64,000 nt of DNA from Candidatus Sabulitectum silens (GCA_001875255.1 MJAN01000004.1:3316-67315), one strand, 5' to 3'; positions 49,624-64,000 are shown, numbered from the stretch's first letter. The notes: generated by a model not told the origin, from the sequence alone. Translations and numbers: made by a program.

Positions 49624-51054
49624 TTGAAGATGAAAACCAACACAGTGATTCTGATCATTGCCATATTTGCCTTTTTGACCCCGGAAGCCTCAGCCCAGTA
49701 CCGCTGGGGGGAAGACCGCCTGATAGCCCACTTCGACAACGGCGTTGCCGTTACCGGCCCGGGCTACTCCAGTTTTCACTGCTTCTACGGAACCGACTCC
49801 GATGTTTTCGTGGGCATAGTAGAAGATTCTACCTCCAATCTCGGGGACAGGTTCATAATACGAAAGTCATTCAACAACGGGCTTTCCTGGACACGCCAGA
49901 ACACGTTCTCCGCCACTACTATCCAGATCTTTTCGCCCTCTTTCTGCATAGCACCCTCGACCGGGAACATCTTCGTTGTCTGTTCCGCTTCCCAGGGCAA
50001 TGAAACCTCTCTCCTTATCGGAAGAGAATACAGCTATGATGCCCTTTTTCTGGTTCAAAATATTGATCTTGAGTTTGAGTACCCCGGAGCCGGTCTCATA
50101 AGATCCTCCTTCGTGGTGGCCAACACAACTTCCGATGAGGTCTGGCTCTTCGTTGAGGACCAGAACGACTGGCTCTATCTAAGCAGGTCCTCAGACCTTT
50201 CCACCTGGACCCCATTCGAACCGGTGGCGGTGAATGTGAGCAGACCCTCCGGCGAGGTCTGCGCCGAAGGGAATGTGGCGGTGACCTGGTCACAGTCCAT
50301 CACCGGGGACATAATGTGCGCCGTGGGCAGCATCGACGGCAGTTTCCAGCCGGCGGTCACCGTTACCACCAACGCCTCCACCATGGCCACGCCCATCCCG
50401 GCCTGGGAGCACCTGGGAGAGTATAATCTGGGTGTGATCTGGCACAGCGACACCGGCAAGTCATACCTCAATCTCTCATCCGACGGCGGAGAGACCTGGG
50501 GTGAAGACCTCTTCGTGGTAAACGGCTACTATCCCTACATCGACCACTTCGCCGGCACCAGAAGGATGGGTGCCTGCGCTGTGAACGAGGCCGGGGATGT
50601 CCTGGTGGCCAACGCCTCGAACCTTTCCGCCCTTCCAATGGCACCCTTCACCGTGCGTTCCGGACACCAGGCAACCATCGACGAACCGGCAAAGGTTGCC
50701 TTCGGCCAGTCATCCTACCAGCTTGCCCTCTTCTACCTCACCCCCACCACCGAGGACTTCTGGTTCAACAGTTCGGTCCTTACCGGCATAGAGGAGGGGG
50801 AGGGCCATTCGGTATCTCCCTCGGTCACCGCCGGCCCCAACCCGTCCGCCGGGTCGTTCTCCGTGAGTGCAGCGGGGTTCTTCGGAAATGCGGTTTACGG
50901 TGTCTATTCCCTTGACGGCCGCCTGATCACCAGCTCCACTTCCGATACCGGGGGGGTCACCATCAACGGCTCACAGCTCCCCGCAGGGGTTTACACCATC
51001 GTGGTTACCGATGAAACCGGGAACACGGCAAGCTGCAGGATGGTCAGGTTCTAG
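49624..51054 (+). CDS. Secreted BNR/Asp-box beta-propeller-like protein with a type-A T9SS C-terminal domain
   Basis: Signal peptide; SFNNGLSW, SSDLSTW, SSDGGETW Asp-boxes; PNPS....YSLDGRLI....LPAGVY.I.V. Confidence 0.75.
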   Translation: MKMKTNTVILIIAIFAFLTPEASAQYRWGEDRLIAHFDNGVAVTGPGYSSFHCFYGTDSDVFVGIVEDSTSNLGDRFIIRKSFNNGLSWTRQNTFSATTIQIFSPSFCIAPSTGNIFVVCSASQGNETSLLIGREYSYDALFLVQNIDLEFEYPGAGLIRSSFVVANTTSDEVWLFVEDQNDWLYLSRSSDLSTWTPFEPVAVNVSRPSGEVCAEGNVAVTWSQSITGDIMCAVGSIDGSFQPAVTVTTNASTMATPIPAWEHLGEYNLGVIWHSDTGKSYLNLSSDGGETWGEDLFVVNGYYPYIDHFAGTRRMGACAVNEAGDVLVANASNLSALPMAPFTVRSGHQATIDEPAKVAFGQSSYQLALFYLTPTTEDFWFNSSVLTGIEEGEGHSVSPSVTAGPNPSAGSFSVSAAGFFGNAVYGVYSLDGRLITSSTSDTGGVTINGSQLPAGVYTIVVTDETGNTASCRMVRF

Positions 51055-52204: not shown

Positions 52205-55200
52205 CTATCTTCCACAGCAACGCTTGTATTTTTTGCCGCTGCCGCAGGGGCAGGGGTCGTTACGGCCGACCTTTTCCTCGGTGCGGACAACGGTCTGCTG
52301 CTTCCCCTCGGCGTTCCTGCCTGCCCCTGTCCTGTTGTCCCGGGCAGGGGGCATCGTTACGCCGGGGTGCACCGCCTGTCCGGCGGGACCCTGCTGCCTC
52401 TGTATTTTAGAGGCTGGCCATAATGATAGTATCTGCCTTACGGCCTGTTTGTCAATACCATCCAGTAGGTCCTCAAAGAGATTGAAGGCCTCCTTCTTGT
52501 ATTCAACCAGGGGATCCCGCTGGGCATAGGCCCTCAGGCCGATGCCGGACTTCAGGTGGTCCAGGGCGTATAGATGGTCACGCCACTTGCTGTCGATGGA
52601 GCTGAGGACCGACCACTTCTCGAGGTCGGTGAGCATCCGTTCACCAAGCTTCTCCCTCTTCTTGGAATAGTATTCCATGACCATGTCCACGATCCGGGAA
52701 CGGACCGCTTCGGGATCCCTTGAGAAATCCTCAATTCCCTGGAGCCTGAACATCATTCCAGAGAGGTCCCTGAGTATCACCTCGGCGGCGTCGGGGTTCC
52801 ATTCATGGGGTTCGGTGCCGTCGGGGAAGGCTTCCCTCACGGAGTGATCCGCCACGGCTTTGATCATCTCCTCCACCTCATCGGAAAGCCCCTCGCCGGT
52901 CAGGGCCTGGAGCCTTCTGCCGTATATGACCTCCCGCTGGCGGTTGGCCACGTCGTCGTATTCCAGAAGGTGCTTCCTGATCCCGAAGTGATACTGCTCC
53001 ACCCTTTTCTGGGCCTGCTCAATGGATTTCGTCAGCAGGGGATGCTCAATTGGTGCCCCCTCTTTCTCCTGGCTCTTCTTCAGGAAATCAATGATCTTCT
53101 CGCTGGCGAAGAGCCTGAAGAGGTCGTCTTCCAGGGAGAGATAGAAACGGCTTCCGCCTGGGTCCCCCTGCCTTCCGCTGCGGCCCCTGAGCTGCCGGTC
53201 TATCCGCCTGGATTCATGCCGCTCGGTGCCTATGACGAAGAGACCGCCGTCGATCTTTTCCCCCTCGGGGGTGGTGAGCTGCTTCACCTCCGGGGCCAGC
53301 TTGATGTCGGTGCCCCTTCCCGCCATGTTGGTGGCTATGGTAACGGCGCCCTTTCCACCGGCCCTGGCTATTATCTCCGCCTCCTGCTGGTGGTGTTTCG
53401 CGTTCAGCACACTATGAACTATCTTCCTGCGCTTGAGAAGCTTGGAAAGCAGCTCGGAAACCTCCACGGAAACGGTGCCCACCAGAATGGGCTGACCCAT
53501 GGAATGCCTGTAGGCTATCTCGTCTATTATGGCCGCGTACTTTTCCCTCTTGGAGGCGTAAACCCTGTCGTTGTGATCAACCCTGGCCACCGGTCTGTTG
53601 GTGGGAGCCACCGCCACGCTTATCTCGTAGATGCTTCCGAATTCCTCTTCCTCGGTTTCCGCGGTACCGGTCATGCCGGCGAGTTTTTCGTACATTCTGA
53701 AGTAGTTCTGGATGGTTATGGTTGCCAGCGTCTGGGTCTCACTTCTTATTTCAACGTTCTCCTTGGCCTCCAGGCCTCATGGAGGCCGTCGGAGAACCTT
53801 CTGCCGGGCATTGGTCTTCCGGTGAACTGGTCTACTATCACCACCCTGCCCTGGTCCAGCACATACTCCACATCCTTCTCGTAGAGCTGGTAGGCCTTCA
53901 GAAGCTGGTCGATGTTGTGAAGGGCCTCGGCCCTGCTGGTCTGGTTCTCGTATATCTGCTTTCGAAGTTCGAACTTCTCCGCCTCGGGAAGTTCCTTAGC
54001 CTCGAGTTCCGCCATCTCGTCGCCTATGTCACGAAGCAGGAAGAAGTCGGGATCCTCCGGGGAAAGCATTTTTCGGCCCATGTCCGATACGGAAACGGAT
54101 TTTCCCTCTCGTCGATGGCGAAATAGAGCCCTCGTCAAGTTCATGGATGTTCTTCTCCCGGAGCCTCTCCCCCTCGACCCTTTTCACCGCCGCGGCTATG
54201 TCCGGGTCCCGCAGGGCCTTTGTGAGCCTTCGATGCTTCGGGGCGCCCGCCTGGCCTTCAGGTACATCGTTGCGGCACCGTGGGTGTCGCCCTTTTCCCA
54301 CAGCTCGTTGGCGTCGGCCACTATGGTGTTCAGCAGTTCCGACTGCTTCCGCACGAGCCTGGCCACGGTGGACCGGTATTCCAGGTACTGGTTCCTGTTC
54401 CTGGCAACCGGGCCGCTGATTATGAGGGGGGTCCTTGCCTCGTCGATGAGAACGCTGTCGACCTCGTCCACGATTGCGTAGTGGTAACCCCGCTGGACCC
54501 TCTGCTCAAGCCTTACCGCCATGTTGTCCCGGAGGTAGTCGAAACCGAATTCGCTGTTGGTGCCGTAGGTTATGTCGCAGTTGTACTGCTCACGCCTCTG
54601 GTCCGGGGTCATTCCTCCCTGTATGCAGCCAACGGTGAGGCCCAGATACTGGTAGATGGGACCCATCCAGAGGGAGTCCCGGAGGGCAAGGTAGTCGTTC
54701 ACGGTGACAAGATGGGTGCCCCTGCCAACGGGAATACCCTCAAGGGGCTGAAAGACCCAGCCGTCGTAGTCCTCCCCGAACTCCGCCGAGGCAAGTTCCA
54801 CCCATTCAGGATTGAGGCGCAGGGCGTTGAGATACATGGGAAGCACGGCCACAAGGGTTTTCCCCTCACCGGTGGCCATTTCTGTTATCATGCCCCGGTG
54901 GAGGGTGATGGCGCCCTTCAGCTGAACATCGTAGGGGACCATGTTCCACACCTCGGACCTGCCGGTAACGTTCCATTCCCTGCCCAGGTTCCTCCGGCAG
55001 GCCTCCTTCACCACGGCGAAGGCCTCAACCATGATGTCGTCCACGGTTTCCCCCCGGAGCAGCCTTATCCTGAAGTTCTGAGTTCTGCTCTTCAGTTCCT
55101 CTTCAGAGAGTGACTCAAGTAGGGAGAACTCTTCGTTTATCTCCTGGACGAAGGGCTCCAGGCTCTTCATAAGTTTTGCCTGGCTGTCGCCGAGTATCAT

Positions 55201-55227
55201 TTTAACGAATTTACCAAACTTGCCCAT
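52205..55227 (-). CDS. secA: Preprotein translocase SecA (frameshifts near 54245, 54125 and 53775)
   Basis: [93 protein letters not shown]. Confidence 0.97.
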
Positions 55228-55532
55228 CAGGGAAAATCCTCCATGCATATTTCTGCGGCGGCATAACCGCCCAGGAGGGCCCCGGCCATGTCAGCCAGGA
55301 GATCGGAGGCCTGAAAACCCCCTCCCCTCCACTGGTCGTACAGTTCCTTCAAAAACCCCAGGCCTGCGGTGACTCCGGCGGATTCCAGGGGCCTGGATGT
55401 GGCCGCGGTGCCCAGGGAGGCAGCCGAGGCGGAGAAAGCAAAATGGTTCCACCCGTCGGATTGCATCACAGCGCCGCACCCGGAGAGGAACATAACGAAT
55501 AAAACCGGCGCAACGCACAGGGAAAACCTCAA
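55227..55532 (-). CDS. YfiM-like small membrane lipoprotein
   Basis: Lipobox LSGC; D..NHF..SA, G..KE.YD....GF...DL.AD.AG. Confidence 0.7.
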
Positions 55533-56440: not shown

Positions 56441-56838
56441 TAGAGGCCTCCCAGGTTAAGGTTCTCCTCGGGGAGGACCCCCCTGTAAACGATGGAGAAC
56501 ACCGTTCTGTCCGATGGCCTCCAGTCGAGCTGGAAACCGCCCAGAACATTGCCGAAATCGTTTCCGTCGCTGGAGAAGGTCATCAGACGGGAGTAACCCA
56601 TCTCAACCGTGGCGTCGAGCTTCGGGTGCAGGGCGAAGCGCATGCTTCCCAGGTATGTTCCACGGCCGTAGGAGCCGTACCTGCCCGAGGAATAGGAGAA
56701 GCTGGCCCGGCTGCTGAACTCCGGCTGAAAACCGGACCCGCCCCCCGGGAACCCCACGAGGTTGAAGCCCGAGGGGTCAAGACCGAAGGCCATGGCACCG
56801 GCTGACACAACGAGCAGAAGCATAATAACAGTTCTCAT
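56440..56838 (-). CDS. Secreted beta-rich hypothetical protein
   Basis: Signal peptide MRTVIMLLLVVSAGAMA; RBS GGAGG; alternating beta-strand pattern ending in LDWRPS. Confidence 0.7.
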   Translation of the reverse strand: MRTVIMLLLVVSAGAMAFGLDPSGFNLVGFPGGGSGFQPEFSSRASFSYSSGRYGSYGRGTYLGSMRFALHPKLDATVEMGYSRLMTFSSDGNDFGNVLGGFQLDWRPSDRTVFSIVYRGVLPEENLNLGGL

Positions 56839-56891
56839 AATGGAACCTCCATGTTAGACAGGTATATTACCTATACTGTGTTCCAGGGTCA

Positions 56892-57176
56892 ATGTTCCAG
56901 CAGAAAACAATGAAGGGCGTTTATGACAGAACTGCAGTACGCAGAGGGCGTGGTTTCAGAAGGGAGCCCGCCGGGGGAATACTTTTCAATGTAGACACCG
57001 GCGACCTCCAGGTGGCCGAGGGTGTTGCCTTCGGCATCTGCGACATGATAGACCACGGAGCCGAAAGGGATGACATTCTGACGGAGCTCAAGAAAAATTA
57101 CCCCGATCAGGACAATATAGAGCAGGACCTTGACCATTTCCTGGATGAACTCCGAAGCCGGGGAGCCCTGGCTTGA
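56892..57176 (+). CDS. PqqD-family RiPP recognition element (ScmD-like)
   Basis: FRRE..GGILFN.DTG......GVA..I...ID......I...L...Y.......DL..FL.EL...G. Confidence 0.85.
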   Translation: MFQQKTMKGVYDRTAVRRGRGFRREPAGGILFNVDTGDLQVAEGVAFGICDMIDHGAERDDILTELKKNYPDQDNIEQDLDHFLDELRSRGALA

Positions 57177-58224
57177 GTGAAGCACCCTACTGGGTCTCCC
57201 CCAGGGAGGCGAACCTGCTCATCACAGGTGGCTGCAACCTGAATTGCCGACACTGCTCTGTGCTAAGCTTCGGTGCCCTGAAGAAAGACCTTTCCCTGAA
57301 GAAATGGGCTGGCATTCTTGACGATCTGGCAGGGAACAAGCTGCTAAAACTCACCATCACTGGGGGCGAGCCCATGGCCAGACCGGACTTCCTCGAGTTC
57401 ATGGAAGAGGTTGCCCGAAGACCATTCAGGTACTCGGTGAACACCAACGGAACACTTGTCACCGGAGCGGTGATCAAAAGCCTCAGGAAGCACTCCGGAA
57501 GGCTGGACGACATAATGGTGAGCCTCGACGGCCCCGACAGGGGAACGATGGACAGCCAGCGGGGGAAAGGGGTATTCGACAGAATGGTCCTTGGAGTGAC
57601 GAAGATAAGGGAAGCCGGTCTTCCCTTCGGTTTTTACTGCACGGTGACCACGCTGAACATAGACAGGCTGGAGGAGACAGCCGAGCTGGCAACCACCCTT
57701 GGTGCAAACTGGATTAAGTTCAACCACTTTCTTCTGGCCGGCCCGGGGCTTGGCCTGGAGATTGTTCCCGGAGCAACAGAGATCACTGGTGCAGGGAAGA
57801 GATTAAAAAAATGTCAGAGTCAGATCCCGGCTTCATACAGGGCTCCATGGTGGAAACCGCCAGTTTCATAGAAACCATAAGGAAAAGGGGCGTTTCAACC
57901 GGGAACAACTCCGCTTTCCATTGCGGAGGGGGTTCACATAAGATAACGGTTTTCCCCGACGGAACCGTTACTCCATGCGACCACCTGCCGGATTACTCAC
58001 TGGGTAACATCCTGGAAAGGCCCCTCATCGATATCCTTCATGGTGAAGAGATGAAAAGGTTCACCGCTTTCGTGAACCAGCCCAAATCCAGCTACCGGGA
58101 ATGCAGGGACTGCGATCTCGCGGGGTTCTGCACCGGCGGCTGCCCGGTGGAGGCCCTTCTTTGGGGCAACAGGCTGAACCCCCACAGGATATCCTGCCTG
58201 AAACCCTGGATGGAAAACCCATGA
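57173..58224 (+). CDS. Radical SAM/SPASM maturase 1 (ScmE-like); frameshift at the A7 run 57805-57811
   Basis: ITGGCNLNCRHC, TGGEP..RPDF, NTNGTL, VSLDG, D..RG.G.F; SPASM C-GG...PDG.V.PC...C..C.....C.GGCP. Confidence 0.88.
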
Positions 58225-59253
58225 CAGAAAAGCCACCCCTGAAGGTCCTCTACATCAACCCCGCCGGGGCTGCAACCTCCACTGCAGCCACTGCTGGGTT
58301 AACGAGGGAACATTCGCCGGAAAACTCCTCACCGTTGATCAGTGGACCGAGCTGCTCAGGCAGGCGGTATTGCTGGGCTGCTCCTACCTGAAGCTCACCG
58401 GCGGAGAGCCCTTGCTCTACCATGGCTTCGTGGAGCTTTACGAAGGGGCTTCGGCAATAATTCCCGATGTTTCCGTGGAAACCAACGGAACACTTGAACC
58501 GGATGGTCTCTGGAGGGCATTTGCCGCGAATCCGCCCCACAATGTATCCATAAGCCTGGACAGCGCCAGCGAGGCAGTACACGATGAGTTCAGAGGCGTG
58601 CCAGGCTCATACAGAAAAACCCTGGCCTCGGGAAAAAGCTCGTGGCCGCCGGGATCCCCGCACAGGTAATCATGTCCATCTCTTCAACCAATCGTGGTCA
58701 GATCATTGGCATGATAGATCTCCTGGAGAAGATCGGCCTGAGGAACCTGAAACTTAACCTCATCACTCCCTCTGGCAGAGGAAAGGTTCTGAGCTTCCTG
58801 AAGGATAATGGTATCAAGGAGATAATGGATTTCCTCGAATGGGCCTTCAATGAGACACCGCCCTGGGTTCTGCCCACGGCTCCCCATGCCCTGACTCCTG
58901 TGAACAGGCTGGTTCAGCAGAGCAGCTGCCCGGTCCTTAACCTCATGGGAGTTCTTCCCGACGGCACCTATTCACTGTGCGGTGTGGCCTTCTCCCGGGG
59001 TGAAATGGCCTGGGGGAAATTCCCTGAAATGACCGTGGGCGAAGCCTGGGAAAACTCCCCTGTGTACAGAAGCATAAGGACCCGGATACCTGACAAGCTG
59101 GAGGGGGTGTGCGGCGATTGCATACACAGGGCGGGGTGCAGGGGAAGCTGCGTTGCCAACAACCTTGTTGCCGGCGGTTCTGTCAGCAGCCCCAACCCCC
59201 TGTGCCAGCTTGCCCTTGACAACGGCCTCTTCCCGAAGACCAGGCTCAGATGA
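58221..59253 (+). CDS. Radical SAM/SPASM maturase 2 (ScmF-like); frameshifts near 58267 and 58635
   Basis: Reconstructed PLKVLYINPAGGCNLHCSHCW, KLTGGEPLL, VSVETNG, SLD, HD.FRG, C....GVL.DG.YSLCG, LEGVCG.C.....C.GSCVA.N...C......FP..RL. Confidence 0.88.
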
Positions 59254-59780
59254 GTTCCCCGGAACGGAGCCTTCTGAGGGCTCTTTGCAGGGCAGTGATC
59301 CCTTCCGGAGCGGTACTGCACTCGTCCTGCGTGGAAAAGAACTCACAGGCATCATTGTTCCTGGGCAGGAGCGGCGGCGGAAAATCCACCATTGCCCACC
59401 TGGTTGCCGACGGCGGGGAGATATTCCTTCTGGAGGACGACGAAACCGTTGTTGCCCGGGGAACCGACGGCACGGTTCGGTGCCTCCCCACCCACAGGAT
59501 AAGGAGGCTCACCGGGGTGGAGCGTATTCCACCCGGTGTTCTCAAGAACCTCTTCTTCGTTGAGAAGGGAAGTGACACCCTGGTTCTTCCCGTTCCCTCA
59601 AAGTACGCCTTTTACAGGGCTGTCAGGATCGGTTCCTTCCTCGGAGCTCAGCTCCTCGATCCGAATGAGAATCATGCCCTTCTCAAGGGTATCCAGTCGA
59701 TCCTCGGCGGGTTTCCCTGCTTTATCGTCAGGTATTCGCCCCCTGTGAACCCCCATGATGTCATTGGAGATATGCTTTGA
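59250..59780 (+). CDS. HPr-kinase-like P-loop protein (ScmC-like)
   Basis: VLHSSCVE......LF.GRSGGGKST...LEDD, L..LFF.EK. Confidence 0.75.
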   Translation: MSSPERSLLRALCRAVIPSGAVLHSSCVEKNSQASLFLGRSGGGKSTIAHLVADGGEIFLLEDDETVVARGTDGTVRCLPTHRIRRLTGVERIPPGVLKNLFFVEKGSDTLVLPVPSKYAFYRAVRIGSFLGAQLLDPNENHALLKGIQSILGGFPCFIVRYSPPVNPHDVIGDML

Positions 59781-60180
59781 GCAGAAAGGGCGAACTTGGC
59801 TGGGTGAGGGGCATTTCCATGTGGCCCAACCTCCTTCCCGGCGACATTCTCAGGGCGGAACCCGTCCCCGCCGGGGACATTCGCCCGGGGATGGTGGTGG
59901 TGTTCCCTGGAAACCGGGCCGGCGGAGGGCCCTTCGTTCACAGGGTTCTCAGTGTGCGAATACTGGGGACAGGGCCTTCATAGCAACCGGCGGTGACCAA
60001 TCCGGAAGGGACGACTTCGTATCAGTATGCGAAAGCCGTCTGGAACTGAAAAGGATCACAGGTGTTCTCATTGCGGGACGGTACAGGAAGGTGGGAAACC
60101 TGAAAGTACCTCAAATGTTGCAAGGCAGGGTCAGGCTTATAAAAATCCACATCAGGATTGCCCGGAAACTTCTTTGGTAG
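59777..60180 (+). CDS. S24/S26 signal-peptidase-like protein (frameshift near 59967)
   Basis: VRGISMWPNLLPGD..., GMVVVF, FVHRV, T.GD...DD. Confidence 0.75.
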
Positions 60181-60207
60181 TATTGTTAAGGGATGAAGGG
60201 AGCGCAT

Positions 60208-60451
60208 ATGGTCTTTTTCCAGATAGATATTCAAAACCCCGCTTCTCTCCATAATAGAAGCCGGATCAACAGGCTGGGGTGCGACCTGCGATGTTGGCAA
60301 TTCTCCCCTCGGAGGAGGTTCCACGTGCAGCACCGGCAATAGAGCGGGATCCTCCGTTCAACCCGGGAAAACAGGCATTTTCAATAGCGGTTCCGAAGAC
60401 CCTGCAAGCAGCAGGCTTATAAACCCCGGGGATGTAAGCCGGGGTCTCTAG
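60208..60451 (+). CDS. Putative RiPP precursor peptide (ScmA-like) with CxxGN repeats; needs two single-base corrections
   Basis: RBS AAGGGAG then ATG at 60208. YSKP is in one frame, and the open frame 60227-60451 reads LLSIIEAGSTGWGATCDVGNSPLGGGSTCSTGNRAGSS... Confidence 0.65.
60423..60445. terminator. Hairpin between convergent genes (possible bidirectional terminator)
   Basis: ACCCCGG-N9-CCGGGGT. Confidence 0.4.
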
Positions 60452-61380
60452 GAATCCTTAGCGGCTCCGGGCTTTCCCAGGGCCGCAAGGGCGATAACAC
60501 CCAGAAGAACGCTGAACCACAGCGTGGCGAAACGCATCAGCAGTGTTGTTACCGTTGCCGCCGCCCCGGGCAGGTAATCCCCCAGTATTCCATCTATGGT
60601 CAGTTCAGTGAGGCCCAGGCCTCCGGGTATCATGGATACCGCCCCGGCCACGCTTCCCGCAGCGTGGGAAAGCAGGGAAATACCCGGGGGAAGACCGTAT
60701 CCCATTGAGGCGGCAACGGCGCTTAGCACCATGGCCTCTATTCCCCATGAGAGCATTCCCAGGGGAATGGACACCGCCATGCTTTTTCCGTTCAGAAGGA
60801 TTACCGCAGCCTCCCTGAAACCCTCGAAGGAATCGTTCCTCCGGGCCATGAAGGGGATCTTTTTCACCAGCTTCTCAAAGAGGCTCCAGGCCCTCCTGTC
60901 AAGCAGTATGAACATTGCAACGGCAACGAACACAACCCCGGCGGCGGAGGCGGGGATGCCCAGGGAGCTGCCTGTGAGAAGGGACCCCAGAAGTGCCAGA
61001 AGGACCATGCTGATAAGGTCCGTGAGTCTTTCGGCAACCACCACCGGGCTGGTCCTTTCCACCGGGATGTTCCGTCGTTTCTTCAATATGCCGCACTTGA
61101 GCAGCTCCCCCATCTTTCCAGGGGAAACCGTCATGGAGAACCCGGCTATGAAAACCAGCAGGCTCTCTCCGAAGGGTACCTTCGCGGTTATCCTGTGAAG
61201 GAAGTAGTGCCATTTCAGGAACCTGAGGAAGTAGTTCGCCAGGGGGAGAACGAGGAACAGGGGTATCCAGCCGGGATGGATTGAGCCGGCGGCCCCCATC
61301 ACCCGGCTGAGGTCGGAATGGAGGACAAGCAGTGTATAAAGGGCTATGGCCGCGATGAGGGCCCAGAGGGCTTTCTTCAT
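60448..61380 (-). CDS. Lysylphosphatidylglycerol synthase TM / UPF0104 flippase-like membrane protein
   Basis: NY.LRF.KW, SPGK.GE, ERL.D, PGGLG.TE, R.ATLW; real start MKKALW at 61380. Confidence 0.85.
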   Translation of the reverse strand: MKKALWALIAAIALYTLLVLHSDLSRVMGAAGSIHPGWIPLFLVLPLANYFLRFLKWHYFLHRITAKVPFGESLLVFIAGFSMTVSPGKMGELLKCGILKKRRNIPVERTSPVVVAERLTDLISMVLLALLGSLLTGSSLGIPASAAGVVFVAVAMFILLDRRAWSLFEKLVKKIPFMARRNDSFEGFREAAVILLNGKSMAVSIPLGMLSWGIEAMVLSAVAASMGYGLPPGISLLSHAAGSVAGAVSMIPGGLGLTELTIDGILGDYLPGAAATVTTLLMRFATLWFSVLLGVIALAALGKPGAAKDS

Positions 61381-62180
61381 TACTCGCCCGGGTCCGGCCC
61401 TTCCCCCGAAAGTACCAGAAGCTCCTCCTGAAGCTTCTTCGTTCCGGGCTGGGAGTCCAGTATCTTCAGGGCCTTTGCCGCAAGCCTTTTTGCCTCCCGG
61501 GGATCGTTCAGCTTCATGGAGCATCTTGCGGCCAGGCCAAAGGCCTGTGCCCTGCCCATTTTCGTTATGGGGCTGTCGGGAAGGAGTTCCGCAGAGGTTA
61601 TGGCGTGCATCCTGGCCCTGGAGTAGTCATCCTTCTTCATGTGAAGCATGGCCATGTTGAGATACACTCCGCTCTTTCCGGCGCCGTCCCTTTGCTCCAG
61701 GGCTTCTTCAAGGAGTTTCTCCGCCTCGTCCAGCCTCTCGTCAGCGTTTATCAGAAGTCCCGCCAGGTTCACCTTCATGGTCCCGGCCAGCTTCTCGTCG
61801 GTTTCTATGGCCCGGCGGTAGAACTTTTCCGCGTCGGCGTGGTCGCCCCTCTGCTGGGCTATGTAGGCCATCTGGGCCATGGCGGTCCCGCTGCCGTCGC
61901 CGGCACCCATTGCCTCCACCACCACCTTTTCCGCCCTGTCGGCGTCACCGCTCCTTATGAAATAGAAAACCAGGGCATTGGTAAGGGGGCAGGAGACCCT
62001 TTTTCTGTCTCTGTTGGCCTCGAGGTAGGCTATCATCTCGTCAACCTTCCCCGCCGCCGCCATTTCGGAGGCCTTCTTCAGCTGCTTCTGCTTCCATACG
62101 GGCGACTTTATCAGCCGGTATCCCAGAAAGACCGCCGCCGCGAGGAAAACCCCGGCTATGAGGAAAAGAAAGTTCTCCAT
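61380..62180 (-). CDS. Membrane-anchored TPR protein
   Basis: N-terminal TM ([20 protein letters not shown]) then TPR repeats; RBS GGAGG. Confidence 0.75.
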
Positions 62181-62181
62181 G

Positions 62182-64000
62182 TCAGATCCCTCCTCCACCG
62201 AAGTTCCTGTCGAATCGGAAAACTCTCCCAGTGTGGTGTCCGCGGAAAAACCGGTGCTGTCGGTGTGCAGCATGCAGGTTTCCGTGGGCGCCGTCCCCTT
62301 CCAGAAGTATTCTTCCCTGGAAAGCTCCGCGCATGCGCGTTGGCAAGCTGCCCTGTGATCCCGCAGATAATAGCCTGTTCCAGCTCGTCGGGCTCAGGAC
62401 CTGGGAATGTGGGAGCGGTGGACCGGTCGGCATCGGCGAATACCCTGCGCATGAAGCTGTTCCAGATGGGGAGCCCTATGCTGCTTCCCGACTGCCCACG
62501 GCCGTTCTTCAGCCGCATCCTGATTATGTGGTTGTCGTAGCCAACCCAGACCGATGCCACGAGGTCCGGGGTGAACCCAACGAACCAGGCGTCGGCGTAG
62601 TCGCTTGTGGTGCCTGTTTTGCCCCCGGCCTCCCTGCCGGCGTAGGGGCCTCCCCAGTACCATCCGCGCCGGCACCGGTACCAGACCTCAGTACCGACTG
62701 GAGCATGCTGTTCATCAGAAAGGCTCCGGTAACGCTGAGGACCCTCCTGCCCGGGTCCGGCCGTTCGTTGCTCTCCAGAAGATTTCCCATGCGGTCCTCA
62801 ACCCTGAGAATGGCCGTTGTGTTCATGGCGAGCCGCCTGTGGCGAATGGAATGTATGCCCTTGCCATCTCCAGGGGGTTGGCGTAGCAGCTGCCCAGGGG
62901 CAGGGAGTTCACTATGGGAAGCCTTGAGGTAATGCCCATGGAAACCGCCCTGGCGGCTCCGGTCTCTATTCCAACGGCATCCCCCAGTCTTACCGCGCTC
63001 ACATTGTATGACCGTGCCAGGGCTTCACGGAGGGTAACCATGCCATGGAACTGAAGGTCGTAGTTCCTGGGGCGCCAGGTGCCCGGGTTAAGGTCTACCA
63101 CCACCGGCTGATCCAGAATGACACTTCCCGGGGACCAGCCCTGTTCTATGGCCTCGGCGTAGTAGAAGGGCTTGAATGAACTGCCGGGCTGCCTTCTGGC
63201 CTGGGTTGCCCTGTTGAACTCGCTGTCCTGGAAATCCCTTCCCCCGACCATCGCCCGTATGTAGCCTGTGGTGGGATCCACGGCCACCAGGCTCCCTGAA
63301 TGTAGTCCGGAGCCCCTGAGGTGGTGTCCTTCACCGCCTGCCAGTGTTCCCATGAGCTGTTGTAACGAAGCCGGTCGGTGCTTTCGCTCCAGGTACCGGT
63401 TTCAGGGTCCCAGACCGGTTCCTTGGAGGTTAGAACGCTGTCTATGGCCATTCTGGCGTGCTCCTGCATTTCCGGGTCCAGTGTGGTGTGCACCACGAGA
63501 CCCTGCTCGTACACCGCTGACCAGCCATATCGGCCCACGAGATATTGCCTTACATACTCGGTGAAATAATCCCAGTCCTGCTCCAGTTCATAACGGTGGA
63601 CCTCCACCGCCAGGGGCAGCGAGGAAGCCTCCTGCCTCTGTTCCGGTGAAATGACGCCGTGATCGGCCATCATGGATAGGGCTATGTTGCGCTGGGCCAG
63701 GCACCTGTCAGGATTCCTGAGGGGATTGAAACCGCTGGGGTTCTTTACCATTCTAACCAGTACCGCCGACTGGGCAAGGGTGAGTTCCGCGGCGGAAATG
63801 CCCCCGAAGTATGTGCGGGCGGCGGCTTCTATTCCATGGGCTCCGGACCCGTAGTAGATCTGGTTCAGGTACATCTCCAGTATCTCATCCTTGCTGAACT
63901 GCCGCTCGATCTCCATGGCGATGAAGGCCTCCTGGAGCTTCCTCTGGAAGGTCTGGTCCTGAACCAGGAAAAGCCCCCGGGAAAGCTGCTGGGTAATGGT
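62182..64000 (-). CDS. Class A penicillin-binding protein 1A (5' end beyond window; several frameshifts)
   Basis: [24 protein letters not shown]...[34 protein letters not shown]. Confidence 0.92.

Follow-up and report, generated by a model that had tools for sequence, protein, structure and literature searches.

A candidate precursor peptide gene, hidden by missing bases, in a divergent SynChlorMet-type cassette of uncultured Fermentibacterota

The SynChlorMet (Scm) cassette is known only as a set of database models. Five NCBIfam families, TIGR04248–TIGR04252, describe ScmD, ScmC, ScmE, ScmF and the ScmA precursor, respectively, and a literature search made without supplementary files found no paper on the cassette. 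The cut-offs of the models are 35 bits for ScmA, 400 bits for ScmE (TIGR04250), 400 bits for ScmF (TIGR04251), 125 bits for ScmC (TIGR04249) and 100 bits for ScmD (TIGR04248). For comparison, canonical loci were taken around close relatives of a protein that NCBI names ScmF. One of them, L041, scored 557 bits with ScmE and 511 bits with ScmF, both above the cut-offs, and canonical-type loci carry small ORFs with a Y-x-x-P leader followed by three or four C-x-x-G units (Table 1). Downstream of the canonical ScmF in L043 (9183-11508) there are three tandem ScmA-type peptides, one of which matches the ScmA model with 23.5 bits; their leader stretch L-E-G-V-(S/A)-G-G resembles double-glycine leader cleavage sites. 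In a Verrucomicrobia MAG (L040, 1305-2888), a 527-aa fusion protein consists of an N-terminal S26-like domain and a C-terminal ScmC domain with 189 bits, above the cut-off, and this fusion therefore ties the peptidase to the cassette. Lasso peptides offer a second comparison: their leaders with the motif Y-x-x-P-x-L are recognized by PqqD-like RRE domains.

We analyzed a stretch of 64,000 nucleotides from Candidatus Sabulitectum silens, referred to in the following as the window, in which a plus-strand operon is followed by a gap and a convergent gene for a flippase-like membrane protein. A preliminary description, made from the sequence alone, had proposed that the gap holds a hidden precursor peptide gene. 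Our analysis leads to a similar view: with a probability of roughly 85%, 60208-60451 is the ribosomal precursor gene of a divergent SynChlorMet-type cassette from an uncultured member of the Fermentibacterota, hidden by bases dropped after 60213 and 60240. The features of the locus are listed in Table 1.

Table 1. Features in and around the putative precursor locus, bases added in the read contigs, and peptides at canonical-type loci. Positions are those of the window unless another locus is named.
Feature	Position	Strand	Remarks
secA	52205-55248	-	Split into three ORFs in the window
PqqD-family gene (RRE, ScmD-like)	56892..57176	+	Pfam PqqD 32.3 bits, E 1.2e-7; N-terminal part out of frame as assembled
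ScmE-like radical SAM/SPASM gene	57173..58224	+	Radical_SAM and SPASM; best NCBIfam match ScmE
ScmF-like radical SAM/SPASM gene	58101..59253	+	Best NCBIfam match ScmF; three ORFs as assembled
Mini HPr-kinase-like P-loop protein gene (ScmC-like, 176 aa)	59250..59780	+	Weak matches to ScmC (26.3 bits) and HprK_rel_A
Anchor-less S26B (Sec11/SipW-type) signal-peptidase-like gene	59777..60180	+	Frame broken at 59964
Promoter-like element TTGCCC, 17 nt, TATTGT	60158..60186	+	Matched by a conserved element in relatives
Ribosome-binding site GAAGGGAG	60195-60202	+	5 nt 5' of ATG 60208; direct sequence reading
Candidate precursor peptide gene	60208..60451	+	Three phases as assembled: 60208-60216, 60216-60239, 60242-60451
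Flippase-like membrane protein gene (LPG_synthase_TM)	60448..61524	-	Pfam 147.9 bits; stop overlaps the precursor's stop
Added base in read contigs	behind 56953		+T in X1, X2, X4
Added bases in read contigs	behind 57804 (A7 run)		+A in X2; +AA in X1, X4
Added base in read contigs	behind 58265		+G in X1, X2, X3
Added base in read contigs	behind 58627		+T in X2 only
Added base in read contigs	behind 59964		+G in 4/4 runs
Added base in read contigs	behind 60213 (T run 60214-60218)		+T in X1, X2, X3 (3/3 covering runs)
Added base in read contigs	behind 60240		+G in X2 only (1/3 covering runs)
Canonical-type Scm peptide	L041 6280-6441		
Canonical-type Scm peptide	L039 6312-6527		
Canonical-type Scm peptides	L043		Three tandem copies

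The region 60193-60451 extends from just behind the stop codon of the operon (60178-60180) to the stop codon of the flippase-like gene. All coordinates given in the preliminary description were correct when we read the sequence directly. The ribosome-binding site that it named and the ATG at 60208 are both there, and relatives have GGAGG or AAGGAG at the matching place. As assembled, the ATG frame yields a peptide of 44 aa from 60208, as had been said, or of 49 aa from an ATG at 60193, and both are devoid of the claimed features. The piece F-P-D-R-Y-S-K-P is read in phase 0 at 60216-60239, followed by a stop. Phase 2, referred to in the following as the Cys frame, has no stop between 60227 and the TAG at 60449-60451. 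It includes T-C-D-V-G-N at 60284-60301 and T-C-S-T-G-N at 60323-60340, the two TCxxGN units that had been placed in one open frame. No ATG, GTG or TTG occurs in the Cys frame (60227-60451), which was weakly favored by a codon-usage score trained on the long ORFs of the same genome. With the missing bases restored, the peptide gene has 81 codons from the ATG at 60208, or 86 from the one at 60193, and stops with the TAG ending at 60451.

Other readings of the region were rejected. A minus-strand ORF at 60022-60339 (105 aa) and a plus-strand ORF at 60027-60254 had no family matches and negative coding scores. A single extra base that would take the reading from the ATG frame straight into the Cys frame (from phase 1 to phase 2) was discarded because it would ruin the F-P-x-x-Y-x-K-P motif, which is present in 8/8 relatives, and because the read contigs show two additions. 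Upstream of the peptide gene, seven of eight relatives have the element TTGTCA, 17 nt, TAT(T/C)(A/T)T, at a distance equal to that of the element in the window, and the precursor gene has a promoter-like element of its own. A promoter and terminator scanner called neither this element nor any terminator for the peptide gene; a GC-rich stretch capable of forming a hairpin is found at 60424-60444.

The preliminary description had suggested a tblastn search of related genomes with the core, and this search did retrieve similar peptides at homologous loci. With the Cys frame as query, the syntenic small ORFs of relatives were matched at six loci (seven copies), with E-values from 3e-18 to 3e-5, in G010 (E 3e-18), G017, G011 (two tandem copies), G002, G012 and G015; G013 gave a weak match (E 0.31), which the family profile described below confirmed. 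The matched ORFs lie between the peptidase-like and the flippase-like genes, and the F-P-D-R-Y-S-K-P piece matches directly upstream of the Cys-frame match and in the same frame. Thus, intact genes of 75-86 codons are present at the syntenic place in seven genomes of the same genus, as two tandem copies in one of them. Their start codons are mostly ATG, with one TTG and one ambiguous start. Five genomes that lacked the gene in the stretch that was fetched each had exactly one copy elsewhere. At the DNA level, the operon was detected in 25 of 41 related genomes, with no match over the peptide gene; as the protein search was positive, conservation is at the protein level.

An alignment of eight peptides had fourteen invariant positions, F3, P4, Y7, K9, P10, L12, A18, G22, W23, A25, C27, G30, C40 and G43, and the window copy keeps every one of these residues that it can show. 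At the place where most relatives carry a third Cys, the window copy has Gln. When the whole 2.9-Mb genome was searched with a profile of the family, the sole match was at 60242-60448 (E 5.6e-13). This match spans profile positions 13-71, starting at position 13 because the frameshift cuts the leader off. The eight-peptide profile was also run against 1.84 billion representative sequences, yielding 53 proteins at E ≤ 1e-3, 39 of which are 61-88 aa long with a similar layout. Of these, 37 were aligned, leaving out P0030 and P0052, whose cores are without the Cys pattern. Y, P, C, G and C were invariant in this larger alignment, and F, P, L, W, G and a C-terminal G were nearly so. The other 14 matches were long (391-1674 aa), with 5-9 Gly/Ser-rich stretches each (P0018, P0028, P0031-P0034, P0037 and P0045-P0051); they could be repeat proteins rich in Gly, Ser and Cys, or else noise from low-complexity sequence.

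Common to the family are the leader F-P-x-x-Y-x-x-P-x-L, the G-W junction, a pair of invariant C-x-x-G units and a C-terminal tail that is conserved. The Y-x-x-P-x-L leader, the paired C-x-x-G units and the Cys-poor C-terminal extension foreseen for the window copy agree with the intact homologues and with the read contigs. For the precursor itself, alignment with its relatives points to a leader of the form M-x-F-F-P-x-x-Y-x-K-P-x-L, followed by a G-W junction, a core rich in Gly, Ser and Thr that holds the two C-x-x-G units, and a conserved tail ending in G-L. None of the eight peptides matched a Pfam or NCBIfam model at E ≤ 1, and 16 family proteins from a word-indexed search had no Pfam domain and were all named 'hypothetical protein'. 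No Pfam or NCBIfam model covers the Fermentibacterota peptide family, and this branch is unannotated. A search of genome contigs with an alignment of four peptides returned nothing. The ESM Atlas model of a relative's peptide was disordered (pLDDT 0.37), and its look-alikes in the Atlas, with a best feature score of 0.81 and TM-scores of at most 0.42, were all below useful bars.

Four runs (X1-X4) of public reads from the same population gave contigs that were placed on 56800-60600. All four are bioreactor metagenomes of a single study and possibly the source of the window itself; they are therefore not independent of it. No base substitutions were seen in these contigs over 56800-60600, and one-base additions relative to the window occurred at seven places (Table 1). 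Five of the seven are runs of at least three identical bases, while the additions at 58627 and 60240 double a single base. When all seven X2 additions were applied, ten fragmentary plus-strand ORFs became six clean ORFs of 84, 350, 384, 176, 134 and 86 aa, the last of which is the peptide gene.

The preliminary description had called for inspection of reads around 60214-60240, predicting one extra base in the T5 run and another in the A4/C4 run that follows. Two additions were indeed found. The first was where it had been expected, in every run that covers the place. The second was seen in one of three runs and was a G directly after the C4 run rather than a base within A4/C4; consequently, the residue that follows K-P is R and not P. 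One relative has K-P-R-L-L at the equivalent place. In X2, the deepest run, the contig with the added G had a depth of 28, compared with 9.6, 7 and 2 for those without it, and the G was absent from X1 (depth 13) and X3 (depth 3.7). Several short alternative contigs from X2 cover 60190-60270, around the start of the peptide gene. The runs disagree at 57804 and at 60190-60270, because of either indel errors of the sequencing platform or real differences between alleles. Part of the population may carry a broken allele of the cluster, since in X1 the T at 58627 is missing and AA is added at 57804, and the G at 60240 is found in one of three runs.

Frame changes in the window extend beyond this locus. 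Compared with two relatives, secA leaves and re-enters its frame at about 54125-54250 and shifts again near 53750-53776, giving at least three frame changes, and it is uninterrupted in two genomes of the same genus, where it encodes 1027 and 1032 aa. As secA is broken in the window and open in the relatives, the loss of bases is a property of the assembly. A penicillin-binding protein gene (transglycosylase and transpeptidase) at 62823-64000 on the minus strand appears as overlapping ORFs in different frames, probably from the same type of error. The window also encodes, at 49624-51054 (+), a protein with a Por_Secre_tail C-terminal sorting domain (type IX secretion).

The frameshifts of the peptide gene are most likely assembly errors. 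Of the alternatives, the one that survives best, although we consider it improbable, is that this strain carries a true pseudogene, with biological frameshifts, at least at 60240, in a decaying cluster. The runs that lack the G at 60240, the missing T and the out-of-frame AA in X1, the small alternative X2 contigs around the gene start and the replacement of the third Cys by Gln would all fit such decay. However, the essential secA gene is also broken several times, the penicillin-binding protein gene is split, and all seven differences are single-base losses at short runs. Moreover, intact variants dominate the deepest run, and the rest of the peptide retains every invariant residue of the family.

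The operon upstream of the peptide gene was characterized in the same way. In the intact relative L019, the gene order is PqqD, a radical SAM/SPASM enzyme of 349 aa, a second radical SAM/SPASM enzyme of 345 aa, an HPr-kinase-like protein of 196 aa, an S26-like protein of 128 aa and the precursor of 86 aa. The PqqD-family gene shares the operon with the peptide gene, in an order that is the same in intact relatives, as expected of a RiPP precursor whose leader depends on an RRE, and 14 relatives of the PqqD protein align with a mean column identity of 73%. In the window, loss of an A from the A7 run after 57804 breaks the ScmE-like gene into two ORFs, which become one ORF of 350 aa after the additions. 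Similarly, the ScmF-like gene becomes a single ORF after addition of G behind 58265 and T behind 58627; its true start is probably near 58221.

In the HPr-kinase-like protein, the Walker-A motif G-G-G-K-S-T can be read, and the intact relative matches Hpr_kinase_C (E 1.8e-7). The intact relative of the S26-like protein matches the archaeal-type signal peptidase I model TIGR02228 with E 3e-12 and 46.7 bits, compared with a cut-off of 51.85. S10, H50 and D69 are invariant among 18 sequences, and the same motifs are found in the two pieces of the gene in the window. These motifs, a Ser box, a His where bacterial enzymes have Lys, and an Asp, are those of S26B peptidases, and no N-terminal membrane anchor was found in the S26-like sequences that were read. 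The nearest structures to an AlphaFold model of the S26-like protein (pLDDT 78) were LexA, SEC11A/C and SpsB, all weakly (best E 0.007), and the best TM-score in Foldseek was 0.57, to SEC11A, at E 0.09. Sequence searches of the PDB gave weak matches only, with a best E-value of 0.0031 for the S26-like protein and 0.012 for the HPr-kinase-like protein.

The related loci belong to Candidatus Fermentibacteraceae, Aegiribacteria, Sabulitectum and candidate division Hyd24-12. Among 70 Fermentibacterota genomes, the precursor was present in 38, from 8 of 14 genera, at 43 places with stop-free open frames; the surveyed genomes are related and not independent, so that these and the following counts describe the phylum and do not amount to a statistical test. 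The S26-like gene was found in 41 of the 70 genomes and an ScmF-like gene (E ≤ 1e-40) in 48. Precursor and S26-like gene occurred together in 36 genomes, the peptide without the S26-like gene in two, and the S26-like gene without the peptide in five. The precursor lies directly downstream of the S26-like gene on the same strand in 28 of the 36 genomes that have both; in the remaining eight, the two are further apart on the same contig (two genomes) or on different contigs (six). Two tandem copies of the peptide gene were present in five genomes of the survey.

The flippase-like gene adjoins the precursor convergently in relatives, including all five genomes in which the enzyme operon is elsewhere. 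We describe it as no more than a conserved neighbor of the system. In some genomes of the same genus, at L052 (G014:C85, 921-2683) and also at L053-L056, an outer-membrane-like gene, which precedes the operon in the window, adjoins the peptide gene, and the five-gene operon is elsewhere or inverted. The precursor is also apart from the enzyme operon in G007 and G018. The enzyme operon thus moves as a block, whereas the peptide gene keeps its flippase-like and TPR neighbors. A more distant arrangement was found at L038 (7004-8279), on a metagenome contig with 71% GC, where genes for an HPr-kinase-like protein (29% identity, E 2e-14) and an S26-like protein (34% identity, E 1e-15) come after a relative of the peptide that is 73 aa long and richer in Cys. 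A DUF1559 protein is encoded next to them. No PqqD or radical-SAM gene was found within 7 kb on either side of L038, and there was no flippase-like ORF among those scanned.

These arrangements bear on a second alternative, that the peptide is a conserved small protein but not the substrate of the operon, acting, for example, as a partner of the flippase-like membrane protein. Its constant place beside the flippase-like and TPR genes in 5/5 genomes with the operon elsewhere or inverted, the eight genomes in which it does not adjoin the S26-like gene, and the two genomes without an S26-like match could be read in this way. Nevertheless, we consider it very improbable: the S26-like gene is present in 36 of the 38 genomes that carry the peptide, most often immediately upstream, and at L038 the peptide gene has stayed with the HPr-kinase-like and S26-like genes, while the ORFs scanned there included no flippase-like one. 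Furthermore, the layout of leader and Cys repeats parallels that of the peptides found at canonical Scm enzymes, and the disorder of the Atlas model is as expected for a precursor. That there is no gene at all, the region being an intergenic spacer or terminator between convergent genes with an open frame by chance, has practically no chance of being correct, for although a start codon is missing from the assembled Cys frame, the 60424-60444 stretch could form a hairpin and the scanner calls nothing, the syntenic tblastn matches, the single profile match in the genome and the 43 stop-free places in 38 genomes all speak against it.

If the peptide is the substrate of the operon, as we think it is, a mechanism may be proposed by analogy with radical SAM/SPASM peptide maturases, PqqD-type RRE domains, the HPr-kinase-like peptide kinases of lasso clusters and S26 peptidases. 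The leader would be held by the PqqD protein, the mini HPr-kinase-like protein or both. The two radical SAM/SPASM enzymes would then cross-link the Cys residues of the two C-x-x-G units, most likely as thioethers, and the HPr-kinase-like P-loop protein might use ATP on the peptide, by phosphorylation, or act as a scaffold. Finally, the leader would be cut off in the cytoplasm by the anchor-less Ser-His-Asp S26B-like peptidase, plausibly behind the stretch (I/V)-x-(E/D)-A, which is conserved. The role of the PqqD protein as leader binder is uncertain, because L038 keeps a peptide with the motif and has no PqqD gene within 7 kb; this locus argues that the PqqD protein is not indispensable. A complex prediction for the PqqD protein with the precursor gave a score of 0.27 against a mark of 0.32 and carries no weight either way.

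L038 also suggests a more far-reaching idea, which we offer tentatively and think rather unlikely, namely that the system represents a separate RiPP class. Its core would be the mini HPr-kinase-like protein and the anchor-less Sec11/SipW-type peptidase, acting as a cytoplasmic module for leader recognition and cleavage, and the radical-SAM pair would be an add-on for cross-linking the C-x-x-G units. The HPr-kinase-like and S26-like proteins are chosen as the core because both stay with the peptide at L038, where PqqD and radical-SAM genes are missing.

Whatever its chemistry, the precursor gene provides material for a first biochemical study of a SynChlorMet-type cassette, since its probable substrate peptides are now pinned down: about 40 sequence clusters, from 38 of 70 Fermentibacterota genomes, with invariant residues and intact loci that can be cloned. 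The locus also shows how short precursor genes are lost from gene calls in indel-rich assemblies, and that relatives or read-level data can recover them.

How, then, does the locus compare with known systems? The resemblance to lasso clusters lies in the leader, where Y, P and L have the same spacing and are invariant or nearly so, and in the PqqD-family gene at the head of the operon. In contrast, no lasso cyclase or B2 protease was found in the operon (56892-60451), where the Pfam matches were PqqD, Radical_SAM/SPASM and a weak S26 only. Sactipeptide and ranthipeptide systems, in which radical SAM/SPASM enzymes such as PapB and AlbA form thioethers on Cys-containing cores, likewise have SPASM radical SAM enzymes beside a Gly-rich core that contains Cys. 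However, the ScmE-like enzyme of a relative scored far below the cut-offs of the corresponding models, with 96.9 bits for PapB (cut-off 340) and 85.2 bits for AlbA (cut-off 850), and here there are two enzymes for only two invariant Cys. Those systems are not known to include either an HPr-kinase-like protein or an S26B-like peptidase.

The closest likeness is to Scm: a PqqD-family protein, two radical SAM/SPASM enzymes with ScmE and ScmF as their best matches, a relative of ScmC and a peptide with Y-x-x-P and C-x-x-G motifs. The scores are all below the curated cut-offs. In an intact relative (L019), the ScmE-like protein reached 160.5 of 400 bits, with ScmE still its best match, and the ScmF-like protein of an intact relative 234.9 of 400 bits, with ScmF still its best match. 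The ScmC model gave 28 bits in a relative, and the score for the window was also well below 125, with profile positions 112-186 of 292 matched. Among the matches of the PqqD protein (E ≤ 0.001 in the relative, E ≤ 0.01 in the window) there were only generic PqqD models and no ScmD. The preliminary description had likened the repeats to those of ScmA. This held for the design, as Y-x-x-P and C-x-x-G peptides do occur beside the canonical enzymes, but the ScmA model (TIGR04252) matched none of the eight relatives' peptides at E ≤ 1. When the window's own genome was scanned with it, there were five noise matches elsewhere (best E 0.067) and none at the locus, and 10 of 14 control genomes gave matches as well. 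A profile-profile comparison of the family with five canonical-type peptides aligned 20 columns of the leader only, with a probability of 84% and an E-value of 7.7e-6.

There are also differences in make-up between the canonical cassette and the one described here. The HPr-kinase-like protein has 176-196 aa, whereas the ScmC model has 292 positions, and the peptidase has a gene of its own. At 75-88 aa, the peptide is longer, and its invariant G-W junction and conserved tail at the C-terminal end are both lacking in the five canonical peptides. The curated models thus capture none of this branch of Scm. Judged by its sequences, the system appears to be a divergent Scm cassette that falls outside every curated membership test, yet is Scm-like in its make-up.
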